In this document: positions 13,610-62,475 of the stretch, one piece after another
How positions within the stretch are numbered: the first letter of the stretch is position 1
How the letters are laid out: each line of letters starts with the position of its first letter
NCBI GenBank assembly: GCA_913020725.1
Contig: CAJWCD010000002.1
Coordinates: forward strand, 4,217-68,216
Direction: 5' to 3'
From: an uncultured Pseudomonadota bacterium
GTDB taxonomy: Bacteria > SAR324 > NAC60-12
Length of the DNA stretch: 64,000 nt
Program-made: the position numbers and the translations under genes
The notes under the pieces: generated by a model
Seen by the model: the letters and a program-made list of their open reading frames with translations, nothing else
Told to the model about the DNA's origin: nothing
Databases searched by the model: none

Positions 13610-13618
13610 GGAGACCCG

Positions 13619-40341: not shown

Positions 40342-40387
40342 GCGAAGACTTTAATTGGATCCGTCTGTCCATCTCAAAAAACGTTGC

Positions 40388-40750
40388 ATGACCATCACTA
40401 ACGATTATCTCCCCATCCTGATCCTGATTCTTGTGGGTGCAGGCCTTGCGGGGATGTTCACCATCATTGGTTTGGTGGTCGGCCCCAAGCTGCGTACCCG
40501 TGAGAAGGCGGCCCCATTCGAGTCCGGCTTCATCGGCAAAGGCATGGAGGGCCATCGCTACGACGTCAAGTTCTTCATGACTGCGTTGGTCTTTTTGGTT
40601 TTTGACGTGGAGATTGTCTTTCTCTACCCGTGGACGGTGCAACTCCGTGAGTTGGGCTGGTTCGGGTTCATCGCGAGCATGGTGTTCATTTCGGTGCTGA
40701 CGCTTGGGTTGGTTTACGATTGGAAGAAAGGTGCACTCGAATGGGAGTGA
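40388..40750 (+). CDS. nuoA: NADH-quinone oxidoreductase subunit A
   Basis: Three TM helices and the conserved ...FESGF...RYDVKFF..AL.FLVFDVE..FLYPW motif. Start taken at ATG 40388 (tracked ORF from 40355). Confidence 0.88.
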
Positions 40751-40775
40751 CGAAACAACGATATTAGGAGACGAT

Positions 40776-41480
40776 ATGGCTGCGGCAAACTACGGAGATT
40801 TTCTGACCACCACCTTCGACAACGTGGTGAACTGGTCGCGAAAATTCTCGCTGTTCCAGTACCCCTTTGTGACGGCGTGTTGCGGGATGGAGTACATGGC
40901 GGCAGCGTGTTCGCATTATGATATTGCACGCTTCGGTGCAGAAATCCCACGCTTTTCGCCAAGGCAGTCGGATGTCCTCTGGGTGGTCGGCACGATCACG
41001 CACAAGATGGCTCCGGTGCTGAAGACGATCTACGACCAGATGGCCGAGCCGAAGTGGGTGATAGCCTTTGGCGCCTGTGCGTCATCCGGGGGTTTTTACC
41101 AGAACTACTCGGTGCTTCAGGGCATTGATCGCCTGATTCCGGTCGATGTGTACATCGCCGGCTGCCCCCCGCGTCCGGAAGCCGTGCTTGACGGTCTGAT
41201 GGAGTTGCAGCATCGCATCCAGAACGATGGGCCGACCGTCGAGAGCGGGATGCTCAACCCGTCCATGGCGCGGCACCGCGAGCAGAAACTCGACCACCTC
41301 AGTCGCTACTTCGAGATCCCGGACAAGCAACTGTTGGAAAACACTCAGAATCCCAAAAGCAACCGCAGCACCAAACCCGGCTATGTGTATTCCGATGAAA
41401 ACGTGGTCGTGCGCCCGCACATGGGTTACGACTCGCCTGCTGACCAGCGCAAGAAAGAGGCACTCCGCGAAGAGTCCTGA
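40776..41480 (+). CDS. nuoB: NADH-quinone oxidoreductase subunit B (N2 Fe-S), with ~80-aa C-terminal extension
   Basis: [17 protein letters not shown] and [11 protein letters not shown] cluster ligand motifs. The extra C-terminal tail ...[37 protein letters not shown] is not typical of NuoB. Confidence 0.9.
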
Positions 41481-41512
41481 TCCTGCGGAAAAACTCGTCC
41501 TGACCCACGCAC

Positions 41513-42061
41513 ATGACTGAAACCACCACGGTTCCGGAGTCCGAAACTCCGAGGGCGCTCACGGCCCTGCTCCAGCAGCAGTTTCCGGACACGCTCATTG
41601 ATTTCCACAATCACCGCGGCGATGAAACGGTCCGGGTCAAGCGCGAGGCGATTGTGTCCGTCTGCCAGTTCTTGCGCGATGATCCCCGTTGCAAGTTCGA
41701 ATTGATGGTTGACCTGACCGCAGTGGATTATTTTGAACAACACCGCGAACCGCGCTTTGAGATGGTGTATCACTTCAAATCGCTCACCCACGGACACCGC
41801 TTGCGTGTCAAGACTCCGGTTCCGGAGGACGATTGCCGGGTGGATTCGATCCACGAACTTTGGGAAGCGGTCAACTGGTATGAGCGTGAGTGCTGGGACA
41901 TGTTCGGCATCGAGTTCACGGGGCATCCGAACCTCACGCGCCTGCTCATGTACGAGCAGTTCGAAGGGCATCCCCTGCGTAAAGACTACCCCATGGATCG
42001 CCAGCAACCTATTATAGAACTGCGCGAGATTGACGAACGAAATCAGTACGGAAGGGCATGA
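41513..42061 (+). CDS. nuoC: NADH-quinone oxidoreductase subunit C
   Basis: 182 aa with the 30-kDa subunit motif ...WYERECWDMFGIEFTGHPNLTRLL. Confidence 0.88.
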   Translation: MTETTTVPESETPRALTALLQQQFPDTLIDFHNHRGDETVRVKREAIVSVCQFLRDDPRCKFELMVDLTAVDYFEQHREPRFEMVYHFKSLTHGHRLRVKTPVPEDDCRVDSIHELWEAVNWYERECWDMFGIEFTGHPNLTRLLMYEQFEGHPLRKDYPMDRQQPIIELREIDERNQYGRA

Positions 42062-43287
42062 GCATGGAGAGCGCACTCGCAGAACCTCAACTTTCTAGAC
42101 TCCCCCTCGAAGCCGAAGAGGATACTTCGATCATGGCGATTGAGGTGGGGCCGGCGCATCCCGCGATGCATGGAATCGTGCGCTTCACCACCTATGTGGA
42201 TGGCGAGACAATCGTGGACATGGTTCCGGAAATCGGCTACTTGCACCGGGGCTTTGAGAAGGAATCCGAAAACTCAAAGTGGATTCAGGTCATCCCCTAC
42301 ACCGACCGCCTCAACTACGTCTCGCCTCTGCTCAACAACATCGGCTACTCGATGGCCGTGGAAAAGCTCTTCGGGGCCGAGGTGCCACGGCGGGCGGAGT
42401 ACACCCGTGTCATCATGGGAGAAATCTCCCGGATCACCGATCACCTCACCTGCGTTGGCGCGGCGGCGATGGAAGTGGGTGCGTTCACCTTCTTCCTCTG
42501 GTTCATCAAGGCCCGCGAATACCTCTGGGAACTCATCGAGCAGGTCAGCGGGGCGCGGATGACGACGAACTGGACGCGCTTCGGCGGCAACGCCACCGAC
42601 CTTCCGGACGGCTTCCTCGACGACTTGCAGGAACGGCTCGACAAGGTCAAGGACATCCTCGACGAGTGCGACAAGCTGCTCTCGAAAAACAAGATTTTCA
42701 TTGACCGCGTCAAGGACGTGGGGACGATCTCGAAGGAAGACGCGCTTTCCTTCGGGTTCTCCGGGCCAATGCTGCGTGCTTGCGGGGTGCCGTTTGACGT
42801 GCGGCGCTCCGATCCCCACTCGGTCTATGACGAACTCGATTTCGAGATTCCGGTCGGCACTGTGGGCGACTGCTTCGACCGCTACCTCGTTCGCATGGAA
42901 GAGATGCGCCAGAGCATCTCCATCATCGAGCAGGCGGCGGACAAGATGCCCTACGGCCCGATCATGACCGACCAGCGCTGGGTTGACTATCCGGACAAGA
43001 AGGAGGTGTACGGCAACATCGAGGGATTGATCGAACACTTCAAGATGGTCATGGAAGGGCACCAGCCTCCGAAAGGCGAGGCCTATGTAGCCGTCGAGGG
43101 CGGCAACGGCGAGGTCGGTTTTTATGTCGTCTCAGACGGCTCCGGAGACCCCGTGCGAGTGCGGTTGCGCCCTCCGTGCTTCAACTATGTTCAGGCCATG
43201 AGGCACATGACCATCGGCCACTACATTGCCGACATCGTGCCCATCTTCGGCTCCATCAACATGATCGGCGGGGAGTTAGATCGCTAA
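42058..43287 (+). CDS. nuoD: NADH-quinone oxidoreductase subunit D (49 kDa)
   Basis: 409 aa with GPAHPAMHGI...PEIGYLHRG...RxxYV..L motifs. Overlaps the nuoC stop. Confidence 0.93.
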   Translation: MSMESALAEPQLSRLPLEAEEDTSIMAIEVGPAHPAMHGIVRFTTYVDGETIVDMVPEIGYLHRGFEKESENSKWIQVIPYTDRLNYVSPLLNNIGYSMAVEKLFGAEVPRRAEYTRVIMGEISRITDHLTCVGAAAMEVGAFTFFLWFIKAREYLWELIEQVSGARMTTNWTRFGGNATDLPDGFLDDLQERLDKVKDILDECDKLLSKNKIFIDRVKDVGTISKEDALSFGFSGPMLRACGVPFDVRRSDPHSVYDELDFEIPVGTVGDCFDRYLVRMEEMRQSISIIEQAADKMPYGPIMTDQRWVDYPDKKEVYGNIEGLIEHFKMVMEGHQPPKGEAYVAVEGGNGEVGFYVVSDGSGDPVRVRLRPPCFNYVQAMRHMTIGHYIADIVPIFGSINMIGGELDR

Positions 43288-43312
43288 AGAATGCTCTGCC
43301 TAAACGGATTCC

Positions 43313-43489
43313 GTGGTCTTTGTTCCCCATGCAGAAAGTGAGTATCAACGACTTGTCGCTGTATTGGATAATTTGATTGATGAAGTGGGTGAAGATGAGA
43401 ATCCTCCCTTGGTTTCCTTGATGGAAGTCGTTGGAGTTCTGATCGAGAAGTATGAGGATGAGCATGTTCCAGAATTGTCAAAAATCTAG
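43313..43489 (+). pseudogene. Remnant of a HigA-family (COG5499-type) antitoxin, N-terminal domain only, truncated before the HTH
   Basis: 58-codon frame ...HAESEYQRLVAVLDNLIDEVGEDENPPLVSLMEVVGVLIEKYEDEHVPELSKI*. It matches the conserved N-terminal module of HigA-like antitoxins (I.tEaeYeaAL..i..L.da.pgt.egd.L..L..LIE.YE..HyPI). No HTH domain follows. Confidence 0.4.
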
Positions 43490-43507
43490 AAGTTGTTAAT
43501 ATCCGAG

Positions 43508-44116
43508 ATGCGAACAGACACGATCACTATCCCCGCCCGTCGCGGCAAGGCCGCACAGGTCAAAGCCGGACAAGGCGTGAAAGTGATCAACACGCATGGG
43601 GCGCAGGTGGTGGACACTTGGGCGTTCCGAGCCGATGACCTGACCGAGTTCATGTCGATGGAACACAGCCGACCCTACTTCATGAAACTGCGCCCAGAAG
43701 CGGGCGACACGCTCGTGACCAACCAGCGTCGTCCAATCCTGACTTTGATCGAGGACACCTCCGGAGGCATTCATGACACCCTGATGGCGGCGTGTGACAA
43801 CCCACGCTTTGGCTTGCTCGGCTGCACGGAGTACCATGACAACTGCACCGATAACCTCGCTGCCGGGATGCAGGAGCTTGGACTCAAAGAGCCGGAAACT
43901 CCGAGTCCGCTCAACCTTTTTATGCACATTCCGTGGACGGTGGAGGGCGGCTTGGCATGGGAAGCTCCGGTTTCGACTCCGGGAAGCTATGTGGTGCTAC
44001 GGGCGGAGATGGACTTGGTGGTCGCGTTTTCGGCGTGCCCCCAAGACATTCTGCCGATCAACGGCGTGATGCGAGCGCCCACTGAGGCACACTTTCAAAT
44101 CCTCGACAACCTGTGA
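43508..44116 (+). CDS. DUF1989 (urea-carboxylase-associated family) protein
   Basis: TITIPARRGKAAQVKAGQGVKVINTHGAQVVDTWAF..., HDTLMAACD and YHDNCTDNL match what I recall of the DUF1989 family. Inserted between nuoD and nuoH. Confidence 0.55.
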   Translation: MRTDTITIPARRGKAAQVKAGQGVKVINTHGAQVVDTWAFRADDLTEFMSMEHSRPYFMKLRPEAGDTLVTNQRRPILTLIEDTSGGIHDTLMAACDNPRFGLLGCTEYHDNCTDNLAAGMQELGLKEPETPSPLNLFMHIPWTVEGGLAWEAPVSTPGSYVVLRAEMDLVVAFSACPQDILPINGVMRAPTEAHFQILDNL

Positions 44117-44144
44117 ACCCTTTGCCGCAAGGCAGAGAACGTAA

Positions 44145-45218
44145 ATGAATCCACTGCTTGAAATCCTCTCGATTCCGCTAGTCCAGACGATCCTGAAGAT
44201 CATGTTCATGATCATGATCTTCGCCATGCCGCTCGGCACTCTGATGACGCTGATGGAGCGCAAGTGGAGCGCCATGGTGCAAGATCGGGTAGGACCGAAC
44301 CGGGCGAACGTTGGGAACTTCCGGGGGCGCGGACTCGCTCATATTGCGGCGGACGCACTCAAGTCCATCTTCAAGGAAGACACGATACCGGAAGGCTCAG
44401 ATCGCTTCCTCTACTTGATCGCACCCTTCTTCGGATTGATCGCCGGGGTTTCGGTTTTTGCGATTGTGCCCATCGCCGCACCGATTGGAAACTTCACCTT
44501 TCAGATCACGGATATTGAACCCGGATTGCTCTTCATCTTCGCCATCACCTCCCTGAGCGTCTATGGCGCGGTCCTCGCCGGAGCCAGTTCCAACAGCAAG
44601 TTCGCCTTACTCGGCGGCATCCGAGCCTCAGCGCAGATGATCTCCTATGAAGTCTTCATGGGTCTCGCGCTCATGGGCATCTTCATGGTCTATGGCTCCA
44701 CCCGCGTCAGCGAAATCGTGGACGGCCAGAACGCCTACTGGTTTGGAAGCTTGATTCCAAAATGGGGAATCCTAACCCAACCGCTCGGCTTCCTACTCTT
44801 CACCACGGCTTTGGTCGCAGAAACCAAGCGGGCGCCGTTTGACGCTCCGGAAGGCGAATCCGAAATTGTCGCGGGCTACTTTTTAGAGTATTCTGGAATG
44901 CGCTGGTCGGCGTTCATGCTTGCCGAGTACCTTGCCATCGTCGGAGTTGCTGCACTTCTCACCACGCTCTTCTTCGGCGGCTACCATGTCCCGTGGCTCC
45001 ACCTTTGGGAGAGTGCTCCGGTCTGGTTGGTGCGAGTGCTTCAGTTCACCAAGTTCACCGCGTTTGTGCTCTTCTGTTGCTGGTTCCAGATTCAACTGCG
45101 CTGGACGGTGCCGAAATTCCGCTTCGACCAAACGATGGCCCTCGGCTGGAAAAAACTGCTACCGCTTTCGTTGGCGAACACCGTGGCCACAGCGGCCATC
45201 ATCCTGATTTTTGTCTGA
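44145..45218 (+). CDS. nuoH: NADH-quinone oxidoreductase subunit H
   Basis: 357 aa polytopic protein with ...MERKWSAMVQDRVGPNR... and ...AETKRAPFDAPEGESEIVAGY... motifs. Confidence 0.92.
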   Translation: MNPLLEILSIPLVQTILKIMFMIMIFAMPLGTLMTLMERKWSAMVQDRVGPNRANVGNFRGRGLAHIAADALKSIFKEDTIPEGSDRFLYLIAPFFGLIAGVSVFAIVPIAAPIGNFTFQITDIEPGLLFIFAITSLSVYGAVLAGASSNSKFALLGGIRASAQMISYEVFMGLALMGIFMVYGSTRVSEIVDGQNAYWFGSLIPKWGILTQPLGFLLFTTALVAETKRAPFDAPEGESEIVAGYFLEYSGMRWSAFMLAEYLAIVGVAALLTTLFFGGYHVPWLHLWESAPVWLVRVLQFTKFTAFVLFCCWFQIQLRWTVPKFRFDQTMALGWKKLLPLSLANTVATAAIILIFV

Positions 45219-45226
45219 GAAAATTT

Positions 45227-45805
45227 ATGGAACTGAAAGTCAAACAGATGCAACGGGTGGACGGATTCAAGGAATCCCTCTACCTGCCCGCGCTCTTCAT
45301 GGGATTCCGCCTGACCGTCCGCCACTTCTTCCGCAACCTTTTTGGGTCAAAGGATGTGGTCACGGTGCAGTATCCGGAAGAGCATCGCCCGGTTTCGGTG
45401 CGCTGGCGTGGACGGCATCGGCTCACACGCCGGGAAGACGGCTTCCTCAAATGTGTAGCCTGCTACATGTGCGAAACGGTGTGTCCGGCAAAGTGCATCC
45501 ACATTGACGCGGGAGATCATCCGGACCTCTCGGTGGAGAAATACCCCGTACACTTCGACATTGATGAACTGCGTTGCGTCTTCTGCGGACTCTGCGTGGA
45601 GGCGTGTCCGAAGGAGGCGATTCGGATGGACACCGGTGTGATCTCGATGGCCTTTACATCGCGGAACCCCTTCGATTTTACCCGTGATTTGCTCAAGGAT
45701 GAGTACCAACCCAATGAGGTGACCAAATTCTCGGACGCGGACCTCCCGCAGCCCAAATCCCAAGCAGAGGCGCTTCCTAATTCGGTTGGTCTTCCTGCGG
45801 CATAA
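45227..45805 (+). CDS. nuoI: NADH-quinone oxidoreductase subunit I (2x[4Fe-4S] ferredoxin), with ~50-aa C-terminal extension
   Basis: Two CxxCxxCxxxCP motifs (CVACYMCETVCP, CVFCGLCVEACP). Start set at ATG 45227; the tracked ORF from 44993 overlaps nuoH. Confidence 0.9.
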   Translation: MELKVKQMQRVDGFKESLYLPALFMGFRLTVRHFFRNLFGSKDVVTVQYPEEHRPVSVRWRGRHRLTRREDGFLKCVACYMCETVCPAKCIHIDAGDHPDLSVEKYPVHFDIDELRCVFCGLCVEACPKEAIRMDTGVISMAFTSRNPFDFTRDLLKDEYQPNEVTKFSDADLPQPKSQAEALPNSVGLPAA

Positions 45806-45853: not shown

Positions 45854-47482
45854 TTGACTGGCGAGTCCTTCACTCCGTACGAACAAGCGCGGCTTGCGCC
45901 TTACGTCACCAACACGGACCGCTCCATCTTTGCGCTCACGAACCTCCCAGAGGTGATCAAGGGTGCCCTCTTTTCACGCTACTCCCGTTCCACGCTGGGG
46001 CTGCGGCGTCTCCTGCTCCGGGAATTCATTGACGACGATGCGGCTGAATTCTCCGCAATCCAAGGTGGCATAGGAAACATCGCACAAGACACTGCGCTGG
46101 CGGTTGGACGTGCGCAGTCGTTCTACGACCGCATCCTCGACGGCTACGGGGACGACTCCATTGGCGAACTCGGCGGGGCGCATCTTGCGGTGGAGGAAGT
46201 CTCGATTCTGGCCACCAAAACACTGGAAGACGCTCGCATCGGCGGTTCACCGCTGGAGAAATCGACGCGCTACGTTTCCTTCGGGCAGAAAGTTGCGGGC
46301 GATTACCGTTTCTACAAAGAGCCGCGACTGCTCGACTCCCGACACCGCGAACGCTACCTGAACGCCTGCCGGACGCTGTTTGACACCTACGATCAACTCA
46401 ACGAACCGATCCGCGAGTACGTCCGCAGCCGCTTGCCCCGTGATCCAAACACCCCGGAGGCCGCTTACGAACGTTCCGTCCGCGCCTTGGGCTTTGACTT
46501 CATCCGGGGGCTGTTGCCCGCTGCGACCCTCACGAACATGGGGGTGTTCGGCAATGGGCGCTTCTTTGAAAGCCTCATCTCCCGGCTCCACATTGAACCT
46601 CTCCAGGAATTTCAGGACATCGCCCAAGCTTCTTGGGAAGAGTTGGCAAAGGTGGCCCCGTCCTTCATCCGTCGTGCCCATCCGGATCATCGGCACTTTC
46701 AAGGCTACGCCGCATTCATGGAAGCTCAACGGCAAAAAATTCAGTCGGTTGCCGAGCAGCTTGAACAGGGAAGTGCAGAGCCGCTTTCTCTCCCTGCCGG
46801 AACCTCCGGGGAGGTGCGTTTGGTGGAATGGGACGCTGACGCCGAGATCAAACTGCTGGCGGCCTTGCTGTACGAACACACGGCGTTGCCGCTCCAGCAG
46901 GTGCAGGAGCAGGTTCGGCAACTGCCCGATGCCGAGCGCGAACGCATTGTCCGGGAAAGCATCGCCCTGCGCGAACACCGACGACACAAGCCGCCACGGG
47001 CACTGGAGCGTGTGTTCTACACCTTCGATTTGTTGGGCGATTATGGCATGTACCGCGACTTGCATCGTCACCGGATGCTCACGCAATGGCGGCAACCGCT
47101 GACCACGCGGTTCGGTTACAACACCCCTGTGGAACTGGAAGACGCCGGACTCGCCCAGCCCTACCACGCTGCAATGGCACAGGCGGCAGCAACATTTGAA
47201 GCAATTGCGGTGGACTATCCGCACGAAGCCCAATATGTCGTGCCGATGGCCTACCGCATCCGCTGGGCGATGCATATCAATCTGCGAGCGTTGCTGTGGC
47301 TTGTTGAATTGCGCAGCACACCGCAAGGTCATCCCGGCTACCGCCACATCGCGCAGGAACTCTTCCGGGAGGTAAAACGCGTACAACCTCGGTTGGCCGA
47401 GTGGATGAAGTTTGTTGACCTTGGCAACTACGCCTTGGGTCGCCTTGATGCCGAAGTCCGGCAGGAATCCAAGTCACCGTGA
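45854..47482 (+). CDS. Long-form ThyX-like protein (FAD-dependent thymidylate synthase family fold, apparently duplicated, non-canonical motifs)
   Basis: 542 aa, TTG start. The second half has ThyX-like ...LHRHRMLTQWRQPLTTRFGYN (compare RHRx7SxRY) and ...WAMHINLRALLWLVELRSTPQGHPGYRHIAQ (compare the NaRSLmnFlnLR..hAqwEI motif). The first half has a ThyX-like N-terminus and a compressed SRHRERY. Confidence 0.55.
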   Translation: MTGESFTPYEQARLAPYVTNTDRSIFALTNLPEVIKGALFSRYSRSTLGLRRLLLREFIDDDAAEFSAIQGGIGNIAQDTALAVGRAQSFYDRILDGYGDDSIGELGGAHLAVEEVSILATKTLEDARIGGSPLEKSTRYVSFGQKVAGDYRFYKEPRLLDSRHRERYLNACRTLFDTYDQLNEPIREYVRSRLPRDPNTPEAAYERSVRALGFDFIRGLLPAATLTNMGVFGNGRFFESLISRLHIEPLQEFQDIAQASWEELAKVAPSFIRRAHPDHRHFQGYAAFMEAQRQKIQSVAEQLEQGSAEPLSLPAGTSGEVRLVEWDADAEIKLLAALLYEHTALPLQQVQEQVRQLPDAERERIVRESIALREHRRHKPPRALERVFYTFDLLGDYGMYRDLHRHRMLTQWRQPLTTRFGYNTPVELEDAGLAQPYHAAMAQAAATFEAIAVDYPHEAQYVVPMAYRIRWAMHINLRALLWLVELRSTPQGHPGYRHIAQELFREVKRVQPRLAEWMKFVDLGNYALGRLDAEVRQESKSP

Positions 47483-47584
47483 GTCCGGAAGCCGCTTTCC
47501 CGAGTTGCCTTTCTCGTCGGTTGTTGGTTATGTTAGTAATTTGTTGCTGCCTCCCGTGGTGGAACACGCACCCACAAACAGAGC

Positions 47585-48832
47585 ATGGATAAACCCAAAC
47601 ATATCGTCCTGACCTCTCATCCGGGACGCGAGGAACAACGCGGCCCGAAAATCCAATGGGGGGAGGCCGACCCCAAAGTGCGAGGGCCAGTGATCGGCTC
47701 GGTGCAAAACCCGGCCAAGCGCAACGTCATCGGCGCGCACTCCGGCTCGTACGCCATCTACCGTGCCCTTGCGGTGGCGTCCGGACAACTGGATGCGGAT
47801 CATGTTCCGGACCTCACGGACACCACCCCGATTGTTCCCTTGGGGCCGCATCCGCAGTGGCATGATCCGGACAAGATTGTTGCGCTCGATCCTTTCGGGC
47901 ATCTCATTGGAGAGGTGTTTGCGGATGAATTGAAATCCGGTCTCGACATCCGCCCGACGATTGCAGTGACGCGGGCGCGGCTGCACCTTCCGGAATTCCA
48001 GATGGCGGTGAAGGAAGGCCGCATGATTCCGGACGGCAAAATCCTGCTGAAGTCCGGCGAGGTCAGCGTGACGAAAGTCGCGGTCGAACCGGTCTGGCAC
48101 CTTCCGGGCGTGGCGAAGCGTTTTGACATTGGCGAGTCGCAGTTGCGCCGCAGCCTCTTTGAGCAAACCGGAGGCATGTTTCCGGAACTGGTGACTCGCC
48201 CCGACCACCATGTTTTCCTTCCGCCCATCGGCAGCATCACGATCTATGTCGTCGGCGACCTCGCGGCGGTCACGGACCCGAAACGCAAACTGGCCTGCCG
48301 CGTCCACGACGAGTGCAACGGCTCGGATGTGTTCGGCTCCGACATCTGCACCTGCCGCCCCTACCTCATTCACGGCATCGAGGTCTGCGTGGAAACCGCG
48401 CAACAGGGCGGTGCAGGCGTAATCGCGTATTTCCGCAAAGAAGGCCGTGCTTTGGGCGAAGTCACGAAATTCCTCGTTTACAATGCTCGCAAGCGGCAGG
48501 AAGGCGGGGACCGTGCCGAAACCTACTTTGAGCGCACCGAATGCATCGCAGGGGTGCAGGACATGCGCTTTCAGCAACTCATGCCGGACGTGCTGCACTG
48601 GTTGGGCATCACCCACATCGACCGCCTTGTTTCGATGAGCAACATGAAATACGACGCCATCGCGGGGCAGGGCATCACGGTCGGGGAGCGCGTGGCGATT
48701 CCGGACGATCAGATTCCAGACGACGCCAAGGTTGAGATTGACGCGAAAAAAGCGGCGGGCTACTTCACTCCGGAAGCGGTGGATTCGAGTTCGCTTGGGG
48801 AAACCACCGGACGCGACTTGGGAGAGTTTTGA
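47585..48832 (+). CDS. GTP cyclohydrolase II family protein with ~230-aa N-terminal extension (URC1-like)
   Basis: C-terminal domain ...CRVHDECNGSDVFGSDICTCRPYL...IAYFRKEGRALG...LGITHIDRLVSMSN has RibA zinc-ligand cysteines and the R/K-E-G-R motif. 415 aa matches the URC1 architecture, not plain RibA. Confidence 0.7.
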   Translation: MDKPKHIVLTSHPGREEQRGPKIQWGEADPKVRGPVIGSVQNPAKRNVIGAHSGSYAIYRALAVASGQLDADHVPDLTDTTPIVPLGPHPQWHDPDKIVALDPFGHLIGEVFADELKSGLDIRPTIAVTRARLHLPEFQMAVKEGRMIPDGKILLKSGEVSVTKVAVEPVWHLPGVAKRFDIGESQLRRSLFEQTGGMFPELVTRPDHHVFLPPIGSITIYVVGDLAAVTDPKRKLACRVHDECNGSDVFGSDICTCRPYLIHGIEVCVETAQQGGAGVIAYFRKEGRALGEVTKFLVYNARKRQEGGDRAETYFERTECIAGVQDMRFQQLMPDVLHWLGITHIDRLVSMSNMKYDAIAGQGITVGERVAIPDDQIPDDAKVEIDAKKAAGYFTPEAVDSSSLGETTGRDLGEF

Positions 48833-48834
48833 GC

Positions 48835-50079
48835 ATGGACGCCCAGGAAGCAGTCGCGCACTTGCGCTCTCCTGCAACGATTCGGGAACGCTGCCGAATG
48901 GTGTACGAGGCCGCACGGTCGGATCAGCTCGAACACTTTCGGTTGGTTCCGGAACGACTGCCCGATGCTGTGGAAACCGTGGTTGCGGAAATCCGCAAAA
49001 ACTACCCCGCGCTCGACATTCCGTACCACAGCCGCTGGCGGCATTTTGTGATTGATCGCGTGGATCATGCCACTCCCGTGCTGCGGCCACGGGTGGAAAC
49101 CGATGCTCGTGAGCGCCTGCGGGTGCAGTTTGAACTTGCCGTCACCAGTGTGTTGCTGGACGCCGGAGCCGGAGCCGGCTGGTGTTTTCAGAATCCCTTA
49201 GATCGGCGTTCGCACGGACGCTCCGAAGGACTCGCCCTCGCCAGCTTTTACCTGTTTGCGGATGGTGCATTTTCGAGCAATCCCGACCATCCGTTTCGGG
49301 CCGATGCCGAAGGACTCCGGAACTTTAGCGCGGACAAACTGGCAGAGGGGTTTCAGGTTTCTGCCGACAACCCGCTGGTGGGCTTGGAGAAACGGGCGGA
49401 ACTGCTCCGCAAGCTGGGAGAGGCGCTGACCACCCGCCCAAGTCAATTTGGCGGCGCACCTGCACGCATCGGCGATCTCGCTGATTGGTTCTGGGGTGAG
49501 GCAACACCCAACGATCAGGGCACGCGTTCGCTTCCAGCAGCAGCCATCCTGCGGGTCTTGCTCGACAGTTTCAGCAGCATTTGGCCCTCGCGTTTGGAAA
49601 TTGATGGGCAGCCGCTCGGTGATGTTTGGCGGTATCCGGTGGTGCAGACAAACGACCTCACCAACGGACTGATTCCCTTTCACAAACTCTCGCAATGGCT
49701 GGCGTATTCACTGGTGGAACCGTTGGAGGAATCCGGCCTCCGCATTGTGGAACTGGATGCGCTCACCGGACTTCCGGAATACCGCAACGGCGGGCTGTTC
49801 GTGGACCTTGGAGTGCTGGAACCCAAGCACCCGGAGGTGCTGGAAACCGTGCATTCGGTGGATTCGGAGGCGATCGTCGAGTGGCGGGCGCTCACCGTCT
49901 GTTTGCTTGATGAAATCGCCAAAGGGGTCCGTGTTGAGTTGGGGTGCACTCCGGAAACGCTACCCCTGAGCCGCATTCTGCAAGGTGGAACTTGGAGTGC
50001 CGGACGTGCTCTTGCCCAAGCCAAACGTCCGGGAGGGGTGCCGCCAATCCAAATTGAAAGCGACGGCACTGTGTTCTGA
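48835..50079 (+). CDS. Hypothetical protein, possibly DUF1688/URC4-like (assigned from genomic context)
   Basis: ~415 aa, no family I can confirm by eye. Abuts the URC1-like gene (stop/start 2 nt apart) and precedes upp, the arrangement reported for bacterial URC1-URC4 pairs. Confidence 0.4.
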
Positions 50080-50107
50080 TTTTCGTTCACTCATTCAGGA
50101 GAATTCC

Positions 50108-50740
50108 ATGTCTGAAAACTTTATCCACATCAAGCACCCGCTCGTTCAGCACAAGCTCTCGCTGATGCGCAAAAAGGACACCTCCACCAAAGGATTCCGC
50201 GACCTCATCCGCGAGGTTGGAATGCTGCTGGCTTATGAGGTGACGAAGGATTTGCCGCTCAAGTATGAGGAGATCGAGACTCCGTTGCAGAAGATGAACG
50301 CCCCCTTTCTTGGCGGCAAGAAGCTCTGCCTTGTGCCAATTCTACGAGCCGGAATGGGATTGCTTGACGGTTTTTTGGCGATGATTCCTGCCGCTCGTGT
50401 AGGGCATATCGGACTCTACCGCGATCCAGAAACCCTCGTAGCCGTCGAGTACTACCTCAAACTTCCGGATTCCGTGGATGAGCGGCTTGTGATCGTCATT
50501 GATCCGATGCTTGCCACAGGACATTCCGCAGCCGCAGCCGTTTCCCGGATCAAGGAAAGCGGCGCGACCTCCATCCGTTTCGTCTGCCTGCTCGCTGCTC
50601 CGGAAGGCATCCGGTACTTCAACAAGGAGCATTCTGATGTCCCAGTTTATGCTGCGGCTTTGGACGAACGACTCAACGATCACGCCTACATTCTCCCCGG
50701 ACTCGGAGATGCTGGAGACCGGATTTTCGGTACCAAGTGA
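50108..50740 (+). CDS. upp: Uracil phosphoribosyltransferase
   Basis: Near-colinear with E. coli Upp: ...[13 protein letters not shown]..., ...[19 protein letters not shown]..., ...[17 protein letters not shown]. Confidence 0.93.
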
Positions 50741-50768: not shown

Positions 50769-51395
50769 ATGAGGCTGCAAGTCGCCTTTGATCTGCTCAG
50801 TTTGGAGGAGGTACTGGCATTGTTGGAGGAAGTGCATGACCTTGTGGATATCGTGGAAATTGGCACCCCACTGATTCTCAAGGAGGGCTTGAAGGCGGTC
50901 ACGAAGATCAAGGAATGCTACCCGGATCAGGTGGTGCTCGCTGACCTGAAGATCATGGATGCGGGTGCCCTTGAAGCGGAAATCGGGTTTGATGCGGGAG
51001 CAGACATGATCACTGTGCTGGGGCTGGCTTCACGGACGACCAAGAGCGCGGCGAAAAGCACGGCTGAGCAACATGGAGGAAAGATCGTCGTTGACCTGAT
51101 CAACCACCCACATCCTGTGCAGGAATGGGAGGAACTCCGCAAAATCGGTATGGATTTCTGTTGTATCCACACGGCACATGATGATGCACAACAGCACAAC
51201 ACGCCGTTGGAAACACTAGAAAATTTTCACAAAGTCCATGGGGGGAGCAGGGTCGCAGTTGCCGGAGGTGTTAAACCGTCCCTAATTCGTGAGATGAAAT
51301 CCTTTCCGCCGGAGATCGTCGTGGTCGGAAGCTATATTACTGGTGCGGAGGATGCCCGCGAAGCAGTCCAAAAAATTAGAAAAGCGATGGATTGA
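50769..51395 (+). CDS. hxlA: 3-hexulose-6-phosphate synthase / KGPDC-like (OMP-decarboxylase suprafamily)
   Basis: MRLQVAFDLLSLEEVLALLEEV...VDIVEIGTPLILKEGLKAV...ADLKIMDAG is the HPS/KGPDC family pattern. Confidence 0.7.
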   Translation: MRLQVAFDLLSLEEVLALLEEVHDLVDIVEIGTPLILKEGLKAVTKIKECYPDQVVLADLKIMDAGALEAEIGFDAGADMITVLGLASRTTKSAAKSTAEQHGGKIVVDLINHPHPVQEWEELRKIGMDFCCIHTAHDDAQQHNTPLETLENFHKVHGGSRVAVAGGVKPSLIREMKSFPPEIVVVGSYITGAEDAREAVQKIRKAMD

Positions 51396-51958
51396 GGATG
51401 AACTTTGCAGATTATTCCTCAACTGTGTTGAAAGAAATTGAACAGACTCTCAAGCAAGTTGAGGGGTCGAAGCTGTCAGAATTTTCTGTTCAACTGTGGC
51501 AGTCGCCCAAGGTCTTTGTGGCCGGCGCCGGCAGAACCGGTCTAGTCATGCGTTGTTTTGCAATGCGCTTGATGCATTTGGGGTTGTATGTTCAAATTCT
51601 TGGTGACACCCTTACTGGTGCCATGAAAAAGGAGGATTGCTTGCTGATCGGTTCCGGCTCCGGAGAAACCCCTAGTTTGGTGAGCATTGCTGAAAAAGCG
51701 CAGGAACTGGGAGTCCGGATTGTCCTGTTCGGCATCAATCCAGATTCCAGCATCGGAAAATTGGCATCAGATTGTCTGAGGATTCCGGCACCCTCGCCAA
51801 AACTGAATCACGCAGCTGCTTGCCATTCGATTCAGCCCATGGGTTCACTCTTTGAGCAGAGTCTGTTGCTCACCTTGGATTCTCTTGTAGGCGTGATGAT
51901 GCATCAAAAAGGCATGAACTCGAAGAGCATGTTTTTGAACCATGCGAATGTGGAATAA
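51392..51958 (+). CDS. hxlB: 6-phospho-3-hexuloisomerase-like SIS-domain protein
   Basis: SIS domain (...KVFVAGAGRTGLVMRCFAMRLMHLG...LLIGSGSGETPSLV...). 4-nt overlap with the preceding HPS-like gene. Lower GC (~43%). Confidence 0.7.
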   Translation: MRMNFADYSSTVLKEIEQTLKQVEGSKLSEFSVQLWQSPKVFVAGAGRTGLVMRCFAMRLMHLGLYVQILGDTLTGAMKKEDCLLIGSGSGETPSLVSIAEKAQELGVRIVLFGINPDSSIGKLASDCLRIPAPSPKLNHAAACHSIQPMGSLFEQSLLLTLDSLVGVMMHQKGMNSKSMFLNHANVE

Positions 51959-52107
51959 ACCGCATTCTGAAAACAACATTAAGGAGAGCCTATGCTTTGA
52001 ACACTTGTCTTCATTTTATTAGTCAGCGAGGAATTGAATTGATGCCCGGATTCGGAATCCGTGTTTCACTGGCTGACCCTCTATCATGCAACTCTAAGGA
52101 GTGACTT

Positions 52108-53586
52108 ATGAAACTGTTATTTAAGAAATTATTGGGGATCTTTGTCCCTTTCATGTTACTTGCCAGCGGACCGGTTCATGCCGGAAAATTTGACGGCATC
52201 ACGATTCGGGTGCTCTCAAGACCTGGTCCAGTCATCTCAGGTGCTGTTGACATGCGTGGCAAGAAGTTCACCGAACTTACCGGCGCCAAGGTCATTGTTC
52301 TGGAGTTGCCGTTCTCCGAACTGTTTAACAAGGTGCTCACAGACTGGTCTCAGGGCACGAACTCGATTGACGCAGCGGTGACTTCTTCTGCGTGGGTTCC
52401 GGAACTTGTTGATATGGGGCTGGTCGCAGACCTCAGCGATTTCGTTGCGAATGACCCAGGCCTAAAATTAGATGACATCACCGAGTATTTCCGTGAGTTC
52501 AACCAGAAAGTCAATGGCAAGACTTACACCCTGACTCTGGATGGTGATTTCCACATGTTCTATTATCGCACGGATGTGTTGAATCGCTTCAGCCAGGAGC
52601 CACCGACGACTTGGGACGAATGGTTCGAAGTGGCGAAGGCAATCCATGGTAAGGACTACAACGGCGATGGCGAACCCGACTATGCGTCCTGCGCGTTCAA
52701 GAAACGATCTGCGCAGAGTTACTTCACGATCTGGTCCGTAGCGTCGGCCTTTATTCAGACCAAAGGAACTTCGCAAGGGGTGTTCTTTGATACCAAAACC
52801 GGTAAACCGTCGCTGCCCAATCCAGGATTTGCAGAAGGTTTGCGCGTTTACAAAGAGATGGGCAAATACGGTCCGGCTGACGAGTTGAACATGGACATTG
52901 CCGATATCCGTGCGCTGTATCTGGCCGGGCGTTGTGCGATGGTGATCGAGTGGGGCGACACTTCTCCGCTGGCACTGGAAAGCGATACGGTAAGAAATCT
53001 CTGGGGAGCATCCCAGATGCTGGGCAGCACCAGAGTGTGGAATCGTGACACCAACAGGCTTGAGCAGTGTAATCCCACGCTTTGCCCACACGCGATTAAC
53101 GGTGTCAATCACGCACCATTCGGAGCGTTTGGTGGCTGGTCTGCGTATATCAACAAAAACGCCGATCCGAAAGTCATTCAGGCCGCGTATGAGTTTTTCT
53201 CCTACATGAATGCACCGGAGCAATCGAACATCGATGTCACGCAAGGTTGGACAGGATTCAATCCTTATCGCACATCGCAGTTTGAAGATATCGACAACTG
53301 GTTGGAAGCAGGTTTCACCAGAGCTTCGGCAGCTGCGTACCTGAACGGTATGAAGCAAAGTTTGAGCAACCCGAACTTCGTTTCCGATCTCCGTATTCCG
53401 GGAGCCGCGCAATATACCAGCGTGATTCTCGATACTGAACTAGCGCGCTATCTAGCCGGTGAGATCAACGAAGAACAGACCATGGCCAACATCGCGGAAG
53501 CCTGGGAAGAGGTTACCGAAGACTTTGGGCGTGAGAAGCAGATGAAACTGTATCGGGCTACGCTGGGCCTCAAGGCCAATTATTAG
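52108..53586 (+). CDS. ABC transporter substrate-binding protein (family 1, carbohydrate-type)
   Basis: 492 aa with signal peptide MKLLFKKLLGIFVPFMLLASGPVHA and an extracellular solute-binding fold. Good RBS AAGGAG. Confidence 0.8.
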   Translation: MKLLFKKLLGIFVPFMLLASGPVHAGKFDGITIRVLSRPGPVISGAVDMRGKKFTELTGAKVIVLELPFSELFNKVLTDWSQGTNSIDAAVTSSAWVPELVDMGLVADLSDFVANDPGLKLDDITEYFREFNQKVNGKTYTLTLDGDFHMFYYRTDVLNRFSQEPPTTWDEWFEVAKAIHGKDYNGDGEPDYASCAFKKRSAQSYFTIWSVASAFIQTKGTSQGVFFDTKTGKPSLPNPGFAEGLRVYKEMGKYGPADELNMDIADIRALYLAGRCAMVIEWGDTSPLALESDTVRNLWGASQMLGSTRVWNRDTNRLEQCNPTLCPHAINGVNHAPFGAFGGWSAYINKNADPKVIQAAYEFFSYMNAPEQSNIDVTQGWTGFNPYRTSQFEDIDNWLEAGFTRASAAAYLNGMKQSLSNPNFVSDLRIPGAAQYTSVILDTELARYLAGEINEEQTMANIAEAWEEVTEDFGREKQMKLYRATLGLKANY

Positions 53587-53620
53587 CACTTGCCGATAAC
53601 AGTGAGTTTTTGTTTGTAGC

Positions 53621-54796
53621 GTGACTGCACCGCATCAAATGCAGGGCAGGGGCCAGCCGGAGTCAACAACTCCGGCTGGTTCGCTTGTTTCCTCGGCCAC
53701 GGGTTCAAACCTGAGCGAGTGGGTGGATCGTCACTCACGACAGTTGTTCATTTTTCCCGCCGTCTTTCTAATCCTAGTTTTTTCCATCTTTCCACTGGTT
53801 GCCTCGCTCCTGATCACATTCACTCGCATTCGACCCAGAGCGGGGGGATATCAGATTCGCTGGGTCGGGTTCAAAAACTTCAAAAAATTATTTACAGGGT
53901 CGGAGCAGTATCACCTGCTTGGAACGTTCGAGGGCATCGGTATTTTCGGATGGGTGGTGATCGTTGTTACTGCTGTGGCAATGATTTACTGGCTCTACAG
54001 ATATTCGCAGCAGGACTTTCGGCTCGTAGGGTTTGCCGGAAGACTAATCACGGCGAGTGCTACTTTTGGAATAGCGGTGTTATTTGGTGCGACTCTGTTC
54101 AGTGGCAATAATTTTGGCACGATACCGATGACACTCATTTATGTCCTGCTCGGTTGCTCGGTGCAGTTCTTGATCGGATTGGGGTTGGCCTATTTGTGTT
54201 CGCTGCCCATCGCCGGGCGCGCATTCTTCCGGGTCGTCTTTTTCGTTCCATTGATGATCACACCGGTTGGCATCGCATACCAGTGGCGGATGCTGGCGGA
54301 CATGCGGTTAGGGCCAGTCACACCGCTGTGGCACTGGGCAGGGCTGGGTGAATTTGCTTGGGGATCGAATGCGCTGGCGGCGCGGCTCATGGTCATGGTC
54401 GCTGATGGTTGGATGTGGATACCTTTCATGTTTGTGGTGATGCTTGCCGCATTGGAAACCGTGTCGCGTGACCAAGTTGAGGCTGCGGAAGTGGACGGAG
54501 CAGGAAAGTGGTTCATTTTTCGAGACATCACTTGGCCGCAGATTGCCCCGGTGGCAGGCACGGTTGTGCTGATTCGCTGGATCGAGGGCTTCAAGCTGGT
54601 TGACATTCCCAATGTCATGACCAACGGAGGTCCCGGCATTGCGACCGAAACCTTAACGATGCATTCGTGGACGCGCTGGCGATCACTGGATTTCGCCGGC
54701 TCATCGGCAGTGGCGTACACATTGTTGGTTGTCGCCGTGATCATCTGTGTTTCGTTTTTTAACTTTGTCATTCGCAAGCATGCTCACAGATTATGA
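53621..54796 (+). CDS. ABC transporter permease (MalF/UgpA-like)
   Basis: Polytopic membrane protein with N-terminal extension. Precedes a second permease and an ATPase. Confidence 0.8.
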   Translation: MTAPHQMQGRGQPESTTPAGSLVSSATGSNLSEWVDRHSRQLFIFPAVFLILVFSIFPLVASLLITFTRIRPRAGGYQIRWVGFKNFKKLFTGSEQYHLLGTFEGIGIFGWVVIVVTAVAMIYWLYRYSQQDFRLVGFAGRLITASATFGIAVLFGATLFSGNNFGTIPMTLIYVLLGCSVQFLIGLGLAYLCSLPIAGRAFFRVVFFVPLMITPVGIAYQWRMLADMRLGPVTPLWHWAGLGEFAWGSNALAARLMVMVADGWMWIPFMFVVMLAALETVSRDQVEAAEVDGAGKWFIFRDITWPQIAPVAGTVVLIRWIEGFKLVDIPNVMTNGGPGIATETLTMHSWTRWRSLDFAGSSAVAYTLLVVAVIICVSFFNFVIRKHAHRL

Positions 54797-56022
54797 ATAG
54801 CAGCGCTGAGCCCGGTTTTGTAGGACGCCGCAGCCGTTGGTTCGAACCGGCGGGCATTGGCAAATTATCTCCCGGTGGAAAACTGATCACCTATTTCTTT
54901 TTGCTGCTGTGGGCATTCGTGGTCTTGTTTCCGATCTATTGGCTTTTGATAACGGCGTTCAAACTGCCACCCGATGTCAACAATGGCCCAGCCTATCTTC
55001 CTTGGATCGATTTTCAACCGTCTCTGCATGCTTGGAGGAACATATTTGTCGAGGATTTTGCAGATACATTCCGTTCCTACAGTAATTCGATCATCATCTC
55101 GTTTTTCTCTACGATACTGTGTGTGATCATCGGCTCATTGGCGGCTTATGCACTGGTTCGGATTCAATACAAACCAAAGTTCGGCTCCATTTTGCTGTTT
55201 GTTCTCAGTCTGGTAGGCGCGTTTATCGCGGTCGGACAGTGGGGAATAGACTGGCGATTCGGTGTGACGGCAGGATTGGCGGTCTTTTTTCTGTTGTGGC
55301 GGGCAACCGTGCGGAGACATTTGAGCGACCGGCAGATGTCGCTGGCACTTGGCGTGTTGCTCGTGGTCGCAGCAAGCTCGTTTTTCGCCGCAAGTTTGTC
55401 CGCCGAGTTCGCCGAATACGGACGCCCGGGATCGATTATTCTTGTGTTGCTGGTGATTGGGTGGAGTACGGCGCACTGGCTGAAAAGCTCAATCGGCAAC
55501 GCGGATATTCTGTTCTGGATCATCTCCCAGCGCATCCTGCCCCCGGTTGTGGTCGTGTTACCCATCTACATCATGTTTCAGCGTATCGGTCTGCTCGATA
55601 CCCACCTCGCGTTGATCCTTACCTATGCCGTTGTCAATCTACCGATCGTCGTGTGGTTGATGCACGATTTTATCTCCACCATTCCCCTAGATCTTGAGGA
55701 AAGTGCGCAGTTGGACGGCGCATCGCGTTTGCAGATTTTCTGGGAAATCGTTTTACCGTTATCCAGACCGGGGCTTGCGGCGACCACACTGCTGACATTG
55801 ATTTTGTCTTGGAATGAGTACCTGCTGGCAACATTTCTTTCTACTACCAAGGCGCAAACCATGCCGTTAATGGTCGCCGCCCAGATCACTCAGGAGCGGG
55901 GAATCTACTGGTGGAACATGGCGGTCGTGATCATTATCATGATCATTCCCGTGGTTGCCATGGCGTTCGTGCTGCAGCGGTTCATCGCGAAGGGAGTGCT
56001 GCTCGGAGCTGTAAAGGGATGA
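54793..56022 (+). CDS. ABC transporter permease (MalG/UgpE-like) with N-terminal extension
   Basis: EAA-loop region ...LEESAQLDGASRLQIFWEIVLPLSRPGLAATTLL... 409 aa, longer than the typical ~280. Confidence 0.85.
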   Translation: MNSSAEPGFVGRRSRWFEPAGIGKLSPGGKLITYFFLLLWAFVVLFPIYWLLITAFKLPPDVNNGPAYLPWIDFQPSLHAWRNIFVEDFADTFRSYSNSIIISFFSTILCVIIGSLAAYALVRIQYKPKFGSILLFVLSLVGAFIAVGQWGIDWRFGVTAGLAVFFLLWRATVRRHLSDRQMSLALGVLLVVAASSFFAASLSAEFAEYGRPGSIILVLLVIGWSTAHWLKSSIGNADILFWIISQRILPPVVVVLPIYIMFQRIGLLDTHLALILTYAVVNLPIVVWLMHDFISTIPLDLEESAQLDGASRLQIFWEIVLPLSRPGLAATTLLTLILSWNEYLLATFLSTTKAQTMPLMVAAQITQERGIYWWNMAVVIIIMIIPVVAMAFVLQRFIAKGVLLGAVKG

Positions 56023-56059
56023 CTAAACTAATGCAAAAGGGATGACTAAACTAATGCAA
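56014..56059 (+). repeat. Perfect 23-bp tandem duplication (AAGGGATGACTAAACTAATGCAA x2) across the permease stop / ATPase start junction
   Basis: Read directly: ...gta|aagggatgactaaactaatgcaa|aagggatgactaaactaatgcaa|gaag... Copy 1 holds the permease stop (TGA) and a dead-end ATGACTAAACTAATGCAAAAGGGATGA mini-ORF. Copy 2 holds the ATPase start. Confidence 0.9.
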
Positions 56060-57151: not shown

Positions 57152-57204
57152 CCTGCACAAACGGCTCGCTTGCTCAGCATGCCCAATCTCCACATCAGCT
57201 AGCA

Positions 57205-58128: not shown

Positions 58129-58129
58129 G

Positions 58130-58714: not shown

Positions 58715-59016
58715 CTCCCAAGTAGTTGATTAGTAGGCAGTTAATGCGATCTCTACGAGATTTGCTATCGCACCTACACAGCTCTTTTCGAGAGCTCTGA
58801 CGACTCGAATTGAATCCAGAAAGCAATGCCAAAATTCGTGAATTTGTTTTGAACATGAGTTTGGGATCAGCAAACAGAGGTGCGACCAGTCGATTCCCAC
58901 CCTTTGAAAAGGAGGATCAAGGGAGATTTTGAAGCAGAAACGTTTTGAAAACCCACTGCCTCACTTTTCGAAATGAGGGCCTTGATCCAAAACTCACATT
59001 ATTGAGAAAAATTAAG

Positions 59017-62440: not shown

Positions 62441-62475
62441 ATCCGGCACAACTTCACCCCAGCAGTGTAGAGCCG

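Follow-up and report, generated by a model that had tools for sequence, protein, structure and literature searches.

A predicted tandem-domain thymidylate synthase gene adjoining a putative URC uracil-catabolism module in a SAR324 bacterium

Genes downstream of nuoI

The window, by which we mean the whole 64,000-nt stretch of SAR324 DNA that was analysed, carries a run of nuo genes followed by four further genes on the same strand. The 40 kb upstream consists of housekeeping genes (SecY, RpoA, SMC, DnaG, RpoD, MetRS). The features are as follows.

40355..45805, + strand: nuoA-B-C-D, a DUF1989 insertion (43493-44116) and nuoH-I; open reading frames outside the URC module
45854..47482, + strand: thyX, 542 aa, TTG start; predicted tandem-domain (pseudo-dimeric) flavin-dependent thymidylate synthase
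47483..47584, + strand: thyX-urcA spacer, 102 nt; left edge of a variable slot, as read from the sequence
47585..48832, + strand: urcA/URC1 homologue (gene 2), 415 aa; GTP_CH_N plus GTP-cyclohydrolase-II-like domain, putative UTP cyclohydrolase
48829..50079, + strand: URC4 homologue (DUF1688; gene 3), 416 aa, TTG start; PF07958 over its full length
50108..50740, + strand: upp (gene 4), 210 aa; uracil phosphoribosyltransferase, URC6 equivalent (TIGR01091)

All four co-oriented open reading frames that the first-pass annotation placed after nuoI are present at these positions, and the gaps from nuoI through thyX, urcA and URC4 to upp are, in order, 48, 102, -4 and 28 nt. The annotation had gene 3 beginning 2 nt beyond the stop of gene 2; this is true of an alternative in-frame ATG at 48835, but with the TTG start the first 4 nt of the gene are shared with gene 2. 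An AGGAGA was found 5' of upp. An Rfam search of 38-56 kb, thyX-urcA spacer included, returned no family, and a scan for promoters and terminators gave no more than shuffled sequence would, with neither the thyX-urcA nor the urc4-upp spacer holding a site. The thyX-urcA spacer is a possible internal promoter region. Because the gaps are short and the stretch from thyX to urcA showed neither promoter nor terminator, a transcript shared by thyX and the URC genes is conceivable in the present SAR324 lineage, and in that case dTMP synthesis and uracil catabolism would come under shared regulation.

The DUF1989 gene had been linked to the URC genes through urea, a proposed product of the pathway. 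It matches its Pfam family with 169 bits, but its scores against the UAAP1 and UAAP2 equivalogs (103.5 vs 284.7 bits and 70 vs 206 bits) lie far below the cut-offs. The order nuoABCDHI-thyX occurs without DUF1989 in four SAR324 lineages (L081, L083, L091 and L093), among them L081, which is URC-positive. The proposed link is thus unsupported; the DUF1989 gene is an insertion particular to the lineage and has no relation to URC.

The tandem ThyX family

The 542-aa protein matches Pfam Thy1 (PF02511) in two stretches (135.5 bits), in agreement with the two ThyX-like halves noted at first reading. AF2 on the single sequence gave an unusable model (pLDDT 37); when it was rerun with a 70-sequence alignment, two ThyX domains were predicted with pLDDT 93 and pTM 0.91, as would be expected of a pseudo-dimeric ThyX. 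All 50 of the 50 matches listed by Foldseek against the PDB are ThyX/FDTS, with a TMt of about 0.7 per half, and both halves would share the fold of the canonical homotetrameric enzymes (T. maritima TM0449, M. tuberculosis Rv2754c, H. pylori). At the sequence level, phmmer searches of PDB sequences with the full protein and with its N-half found nothing meaningful and profiles were needed; PDB sequence and profile searches found no solved structure of any tandem-family member.

Across the tandem family R128, S137, R139, Y140, E385, R405, H406, R478, R487 and H493 are invariant (70/70) and R407 is kept in 69/70, and profile alignments map these conserved residues onto the M. tuberculosis and T. 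maritima enzymes. The motif is partitioned: the C-half contributes RHR (405-407), R487 and H493, and the N-half S137, R139, Y140 and R218. The first-pass annotation read the motifs otherwise, and its reading needs correction. The C-half spacing given as x7 is in fact RHR-x9-TTRF, whose TTRF part varies among family members, and the S-x-R-Y that was thought to be replaced by a non-canonical motif is S137-T-R139-Y140 in the N-half, with all three named residues kept in 70/70. The N-half SRHRERY is present in the sequence as described but is unconserved, its R, H and R occurring in 10/70, 12/70 and 12/70 members.

Equivalents of the canonical RHR, S-x-R-Y, R147, N163/R165, R174, H178 and E58 all occur, invariant save at R407, somewhere in the tandem chain. 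What distinguishes it from canonical ThyX is that a single 542-aa chain of two domains divides these elements: the N-half is without R78/H79, and the C-half has no S-x-R-Y loop and carries Gln in place of R147. The halves have thus specialised, the N-half retaining the substrate loop S-x-R-Y and an R147-equivalent arginine, and the C-half the R-H-R, E58 and the residues equivalent to R174 and H178. The ThyX active site is formed where three subunits meet (PMC5954106), which makes complementary halves of this kind plausible. A dimer of such chains would restore the canonical pseudo-tetramer, two of whose active sites would be complete and would convert dUMP to dTMP; from the fold prediction and residue conservation we infer both this activity and a dimer with only two complete sites. 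The wider proposition, that the double-length family is an obligate pseudo-heterodimer whose motif was partitioned after internal duplication, leaving two rather than four sites per dimer, we rate at even odds. No description of a ThyX motif partition was found in the literature examined. The Chlamydia trachomatis enzyme (CT632), which we take to be about 529 aa long and biochemically active, may be a known case with the same double-length architecture, and we mention it as a lead only. In structure and evolution the split-motif tandem ThyX is something of a minor curiosity; if undescribed, it could bear on ThyX-targeted inhibitors.

The family, named FAD-dependent thymidylate synthase in databases, is widespread: at E <= 1e-30 it runs to about 735 clusters (50% identity), with members from SAR324, small-genome CPR lineages, Chloroflexi, Armatimonadota and archaea. 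Relatives at 36-40% identity lie in the contexts RNR-ThyX-SHMT, Dcd-Dut-ThyX-AAA-Tmk and DnaB-polIIIbeta-ThyX-polIIIalpha. Scored against the equivalog for canonical single-domain ThyX (TIGR02170), the present protein reaches 61.8 bits, below the cut-off of 87.9, and to judge by its sequence it belongs to a divergent tandem subfamily rather than to the canonical form. That score would also suit a paralogue of altered specificity, unrelated to URC and not the cell's thymidylate synthase. UMP-methylating ThyX homologues do exist, such as PolB (PMC5003785), likewise a flavoenzyme of the ThyX family with uridine nucleotides as substrates, and the tandem halves are not alike in the substrate loop or at the position of R147. 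However, PolB is a single-domain protein of an antibiotic biosynthetic cluster, whereas the tandem family is found in dTMP-synthesis or DNA-replication contexts, of which RNR-ThyX-SHMT and Dcd-Dut-ThyX-Tmk point to dUMP -> dTMP. The residues equivalent to S-x-R-Y, RHR and R174 do not vary (save for the single exception at R407), the position of the gene is kept within a housekeeping region, and the family occurs in CPR and small archaeal genomes, where a thymidylate synthase is needed. We consider a PolB-like UMP C5-methylase very improbable. Most likely, thyX is the organism's ordinary double-domain thymidylate synthase and not a new URC step.

thyX and the slot upstream of upp

The first-pass annotation had raised the possibility that the ThyX-like protein takes part in the URC pathway. 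It would then be an additional enzyme devoted to a variant of that pathway, and might act on UMP, dUMP or a thymine-derived nucleotide so as to supply or prolong the ring cleavage carried out by URC1. Its gene lies directly 5' of urcA on the same strand across the 102-nt gap with no terminator detected, the thyX-URC neighbourhood recurs in one further SAR324 lineage (L081), and the protein falls below the thyX equivalog cut-off, all of which would fit such a role. The comparative data nevertheless largely refute it. We took as our sample 80 URC1 loci from cyanobacteria, proteobacteria and Legionella. A ThyX-family open reading frame was found by tblastn near URC1 in 0/80 of them, and profile-HMM searches of 1.11 Mb around URC1 genes gave 0 matches, so that the conserved ThyX partner expected under that proposal does not appear. 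The distant relatives with dTMP or DNA-replication neighbours are never beside URC genes, and the catalytic motif elements are present and conserved as described above.

The arrangement within SAR324 also argues against a URC role. The frame nuoI-thyX-[slot]-upp is common to SAR324 relatives with or without URC1 and URC4, and four lineages without these two genes keep thyX after nuoI. The slot between thyX and upp is empty in three lineages, and in one it holds YHYH, an unknown gene and a methyltransferase. In L081 it holds an unknown 173-aa gene, URC1 and URC4, so that an unrelated gene intervenes between thyX and URC1. The 173-aa slot proteins of L081 and L093 are unrelated to each other, and no remnant of either gene was found in the thyX-urcA spacer of the window. 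Weighing this, we regard participation of the tandem ThyX in a variant URC pathway as a long shot.

The Upp at the right-hand side of the slot is 75-81% identical to other SAR324 Upps, those of relatives lacking URC1 and URC4 included, and 59-68% identical to Upps from other bacterial URC clusters; on these identities upp is the resident, vertically inherited SAR324 copy. In the window the variable slot that separates thyX from this resident upp is taken up by the URC1-URC4 pair, which reproduces the usual URC1-URC4-Upp order.

The URC module and its neighbour

Gene 2 has the URC1 architecture that the first-pass annotation recognised. In Pfam it matches GTP_CH_N (PF12471, 281.6 bits) and GTP_cyclohydro2 (PF00925, 54.8 bits), the latter in the C-terminal half together with the three zinc cysteines, and in NCBIfam it matches PRK07198 (NF005536) with 734.7 bits against a cut-off of 403. 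It is 65-71% identical to homologues from 80 bacterial genomes and aligns over residues 6-412 of 415 with the solved bacterial homologues 7EJ3/7EEV (586.8 bits). The stretch RVHDECNGSDVFGSDICTCRPYL is identical in 7EJ3/7EEV. The zinc motif E-C-x10-C-x-C lies inside a 23-residue stretch identical to the solved homologue, and ECNGSDVFGSDICTC, with the cysteine triad C-x10-C-x-C, is identical in 7EJ3. No sequence-level difference between gene 2 and these homologues was detected that would set it apart from a bacterial UTP cyclohydrolase, and we assign it that activity as putative.

The solved homologues belong to a protein family reported as UTP cyclohydrolase, and PMC12507026 cites Zhang et al. 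2021 ('UTP cyclohydrolase', ACS Catal 11:8895) as a reference for the URC pathway. NCBIfam and the PDB label the family 'GTP cyclohydrolase II', and with the PF00925 match and its zinc cysteines this could suggest a riboflavin-pathway enzyme (RibA/RibBA) brought beside its neighbours by chance rather than a uracil-catabolic module, a reading to which we give almost no credence, given RibA/RibBA scores of 34-57 bits against cut-offs of 148-764, an N-domain that is GTP_CH_N and not DHBP synthase, the UTP-cyclohydrolase family of the solved homologues, DUF1688 and Upp neighbours at most URC1 loci, and fungal orthologues that are induced by uracil. Family membership rules out RibA/RibBA as the identity of gene 2.

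Gene 3 is a full-length DUF1688 (PF07958; 480.4 bits, residues 12-416 on model positions 2-420 of 420), which bears out its tentative assignment as URC4; no solved relative of it was found. The fourth gene is indeed a uracil phosphoribosyltransferase, scoring 247 bits for Pfam UPRTase, 278.1 bits for TIGR01091 (cut-off 208.35) and 285.8 for NF001097 (cut-off 114). Among the 80 loci, 66 have URC4 immediately downstream of URC1 and 49 have Upp, the latter having the order seen here, and when neighbours were clustered, antisense shadow open reading frames set aside, nothing besides URC4 and Upp occurred in more than 16 loci. By family membership and gene order, genes 2-4 are thus a canonical URC1-URC4-Upp module, as the first-pass annotation proposed.

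The URC core cluster of L. kluyveri, S. pombe and bacteria consists of the same three protein families, with the GTP_CH_N plus GCH II architecture of URC1 and its zinc motif in common. In S. pombe the trio urg1-urg3-urg2 is clustered and uracil-induced (PMC2174524), and the trio is conserved across fungi and bacteria, bacterial clusters having been noted (PMC3869809). The cluster is therefore not new, a bacterial URC1-URC4-UPRT cluster being already reported in the same source, which cites Andersen et al. 2008. The present locus differs in that Upp is a resident SAR324 gene with URC1-URC4 in a variable slot 5' of it, and in that no transporter, regulator or urea-utilisation genes lie nearby; no urease, urea amidolyase or urea carboxylase was found in the window.

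The chemistry we propose draws by analogy on yeast genetics and on work on UTP cyclohydrolase. Genetics in Lachancea kluyveri by Andersen et al. in 2008 is said to lie behind the URC pathway (URC1-URC4-URC6(UPRT)), and the ring-opening step follows a UTP cyclohydrolase reaction reportedly described by Zhang et al. in 2021. Upp would convert uracil and PRPP to UMP, which housekeeping kinases encoded elsewhere would take to UTP. The URC1/UrcA homologue, as a zinc cyclohydrolase, would open the uracil ring hydrolytically, and the products of ring opening would be a ribosylurea phosphate together with a three-carbon acid (malonate semialdehyde or 3-hydroxypropionate). The putative DUF1688/URC4 protein would then release urea from (phospho)ribosylurea as a nitrogen source.

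Our preferred reading, to which we assign a probability of roughly 85%, is that two functionally separate units adjoin here, a tandem thyX and a canonical URC module, and that the adjacency of the module to thyX and the nuo genes is positional and not functional. The locus adds SAR324, an abundant deep-ocean lineage, to the known bearers of the URC module for uracil catabolism, and little else about the module is new. Its presence suggests that some SAR324 populations can use uracil or nucleotides for nitrogen, and the trait is accessory, differing among lineages at a single chromosomal slot. The locus also carries a caution, in that the tight co-orientation of a gene with those of a related pathway, as with ThyX beside pyrimidine genes, reflects conserved synteny here and not a common pathway. 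GC and GC3 per gene give no signature of recent transfer for URC1 or URC4; both values are lower only in a sugar island downstream.

The four-gene locus and its URC module

In this window from a bacterium of the SAR324 cluster, four co-oriented ORFs follow MetRS and a run of genes in the order nuoA-B-C-D-(DUF1989)-H-I, and the 40 kb upstream is housekeeping in character (SecY, RpoA, SMC, HisD, DnaG, RpoD, MetRS). The positions are exactly those of the first-pass annotation, and each identity guessed there was borne out by Pfam and NCBIfam profiles.

The four genes, with window positions and profile matches
45854-47482, co-oriented: gene 1, ThyX-like, 542 aa; Thy1 in two stretches, 135.5 bits (Pfam)
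47585-48832, co-oriented: gene 2, URC1/UrcA homologue, 415 aa; GTP_CH_N 281.6 bits and GTP_cyclohydro2 54.8 bits
48829-50079, co-oriented: gene 3, DUF1688, 416 aa; DUF1688 480.4 bits, full length
50108-50740, co-oriented: gene 4, UPRTase/Upp, 210 aa; TIGR01091 278 bits against a cut-off of 208

Gene 3 overlaps gene 2 by 4 nt, although with the ATG at 48835 as its start 2 nt would separate the two; AGGAGA lies upstream of upp. Genes 2-4 had been read as a bacterial URC-type module, and both the relatives of gene 2 and the gene order in other bacteria uphold that reading. Gene 2 scores 734.7 bits against PRK07198 (NCBIfam) and 586.8 bits, across residues 6-412, against the solved bacterial proteins 7EJ3 and 7EEV (423-425 aa); RVHDECNGSDVFGSDICTCRPYL, the stretch bearing the zinc Cys triad, is identical between gene 2 and the solved homologue. 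Identification of gene 2 as RibA or RibBA was rejected, every such NCBIfam model falling far under its cut-off. When one genome per species was scanned, at least 599 URC1 relatives were retrieved; the best 80 share 65-71% identity and represent cyanobacteria, alpha-, beta- and gammaproteobacteria, and Legionella. The DUF1688 gene lies directly after URC1 in 66 of these 80 loci, with Upp after it in 49, and clustering of all neighbouring ORFs found no further URC partner present in more than 16.

UTP ring-opening activity was reportedly assigned to bacterial URC1 homologues in a 2021 paper in ACS Catal. That UTP-cyclohydrolase paper is the URC-pathway reference cited in PMC12507026. The same trio as genes 2-4 is also clustered in S. 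pombe, as the uracil-induced urg1/urg3/urg2 (PMC2174524), and the yeast pathway runs from uracil through UMP and ribosylurea to urea and 3-hydroxypropionate (PMC7530994). Since the cluster is known in bacteria and fungi (PMC3869809, citing Andersen et al. 2008) and the yeast pathway has been described, the URC reading is correct but not new; the module in the window is already known, and nothing in that part is novel.

Family membership and gene order of the URC genes were observed directly, and the chemistry of their steps in the window is putative, imported from the literature. Upp would convert uracil to UMP, kinases encoded elsewhere would carry UMP to UTP, the URC1/UrcA homologue would open the ring by zinc-dependent hydrolysis, and the DUF1688 protein would release urea; thyX would supply dTMP independently of the URC genes.

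Two neighbouring genes seen in other loci may be mentioned here. Upstream of URC1, 11 of the 80 loci (6496-7857 in L055, and ten others) carry an ORF of one family, about 412 aa long; its N-terminus presumably resembles phosphopentomutase (DeoB), which, if true, would fit ribose phosphate recycling. In L081, the URC-positive SAR324 relative, an ADP-ribosylglycohydrolase-family gene (12692-13723) follows upp and has no equivalent in the window; that it is a candidate for cleaving the ribosyl-urea N-glycosidic bond is pure speculation.

The variable slot between thyX and upp

The frame MetRS-nuoABCDHI-thyX-[slot]-upp is common to the SAR324 lineages examined, and the slot alone varies.

Contents of the slot in SAR324 lineages
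P0011, P0043, P0091: empty
P0009: YHYH, unknown gene, methyltransferase
P0007: unknown 173-aa gene, URC1, URC4
Window 47483-50107: URC1, URC4

With Upps of these SAR324 relatives the window Upp shares 75-81% identity, and with those of other bacterial URC clusters only 59-68%; upp is therefore a resident gene. URC1-URC4 is an accessory pair directly upstream of it, with no sign of recent transfer of the two genes in GC3. Beside the URC pair an unrelated, membrane-like ORF of 173 aa is present or absent.

The nuo cluster at 40355-45805 consists here of nuoA-B-C-D-H-I only, without nuoEFG or nuoJ-N, and four SAR324 loci (L081, L083, L091, L093) keep the same short cluster with thyX after it. It takes lineage-specific insertions of single genes: in the window DUF1989 separates nuoD from nuoH, and other SAR324 lineages have instead a PNPOx-family gene that separates nuoH from nuoI. 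The earlier suggestion that the DUF1989 gene is tied to urea and the URC pathway did not survive: the gene is missing from L081, its protein scores far under the UAAP cut-offs (NCBIfam), and no urease or urea amidolyase occurs within the window.

The ThyX-like gene had been proposed as a new URC step, and here the comparative data point the other way. Searched by tblastn with the 542-aa protein, none of the 80 loci gave a match, and tandem-ThyX family profile HMMs, sensitive enough to pick up canonical ThyX in the PDB (E 1e-7 to 1e-13), found no ThyX-family ORF in their 1.11 Mb. Conversely, URC genes occur in none of five contexts of distant tandem-ThyX members (35-49% identity), and thyX keeps its position in SAR324 lineages that have no URC1/URC4. 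The gene is thus not supported as a URC partner, and a shared pathway is unlikely. Because a sequence scan detected no promoter or terminator in the thyX-URC region, and no RNA family was found there, thyX may be co-transcribed with the URC genes.

A ThyX motif split between two halves

What remains curious at this locus is the tandem ThyX itself. Its closest homologues are SAR324 or 'Deltaproteobacteria' MAG proteins (62-99% identity), and the wider family comprises 735 clusters at 50% identity (E <= 1e-30), mostly of 500-570 aa, from Woesebacteria (CPR), one archaeal MAG, Chloroflexota, Armatimonadota and SAR324, all named FAD-dependent thymidylate synthase. The five contexts examined were ribonucleotide reductase-ThyX-SHMT, dCTP deaminase-dUTPase-ThyX-AAA-thymidylate kinase, DnaB-Pol III beta-ThyX-Pol III alpha, and two that were uninformative. 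In one locus (L094 1-9551) a 516-aa tandem ThyX lies between the Pol III beta and alpha genes, beside DnaB and an endonuclease VII gene, and may be on a phage or other mobile replicon.

AlphaFold modelled the 542-aa protein from a 70-sequence alignment with pLDDT 93 and pTM 0.91, and all 50 Foldseek PDB matches listed are ThyX/FDTS, each over one half (TMt about 0.7); the PDB searched held no solved structure of the tandem architecture. Against TIGR02170 the protein scores 61.8 bits, below the equivalog cut-off of 87.9; it belongs to a divergent tandem subfamily and is not a canonical ThyX.

Residues were mapped by profile alignment to ThyX of M. tuberculosis (N-half) and of T. maritima and H. 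pylori (C-half), with column counts (n=70). The T. maritima numbers are those of the TM0449 sequence; the PDB mutant names E144R, R174K, H53A/D, S88A, R90A and Y91F agree with them. The N-half retains R128, the third Arg of an RHR whose first Arg and His are gone, together with the S88/R90/Y91 loop as S137-T-R139-Y140 (S137, R139 and Y140 each 70/70) and the R147 equivalent R218 (67/70). The C-half carries R405-H406-R407 (70, 70 and 69 of 70), E385 (E58), N476/R478, R487 (R174) and H493 (H178), with E385, R478, R487 and H493 invariant. It has no S-x-R-Y loop, and its R147 position is occupied by Gln. The ThyX motif is complete in the tandem protein but partitioned between the halves, with RHR, R174 and H178 confined to the C-half and S-x-R-Y and R147 to the N-half. 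Since the ThyX active site lies at an interface of three subunits (PMC5954106), we infer that complementary halves could rebuild two complete sites per dimer. The motifs first picked out, 'SRHRERY' and 'TTRF', are not conserved among the 70 sequences, and the spacing given as RHR-x7-TTRF is actually RHR-x9-TTRF.

The island downstream of upp

An island at 50769-63408 starts directly after upp (28-nt gap) and has a lower GC3, 0.55-0.64 against about 0.7.

Genes of the island
RuMP pathway: 3-hexulose-6-phosphate synthase, 6-phospho-3-hexuloisomerase
Sugar ABC transporter: SBP, two permeases, MalK-like ATPase
Other: unknown 307-aa protein, cupin-type glucose-6-phosphate isomerase, 2-oxoacid dehydrogenase E1 alpha/beta, PfkB kinase

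At 61028-62440 an E2-like protein has lipoyl and E3-binding domains and a C-terminal alpha/beta-hydrolase replacing the usual acyltransferase domain, an architecture known from AcoC-type acetoin dehydrogenase components.
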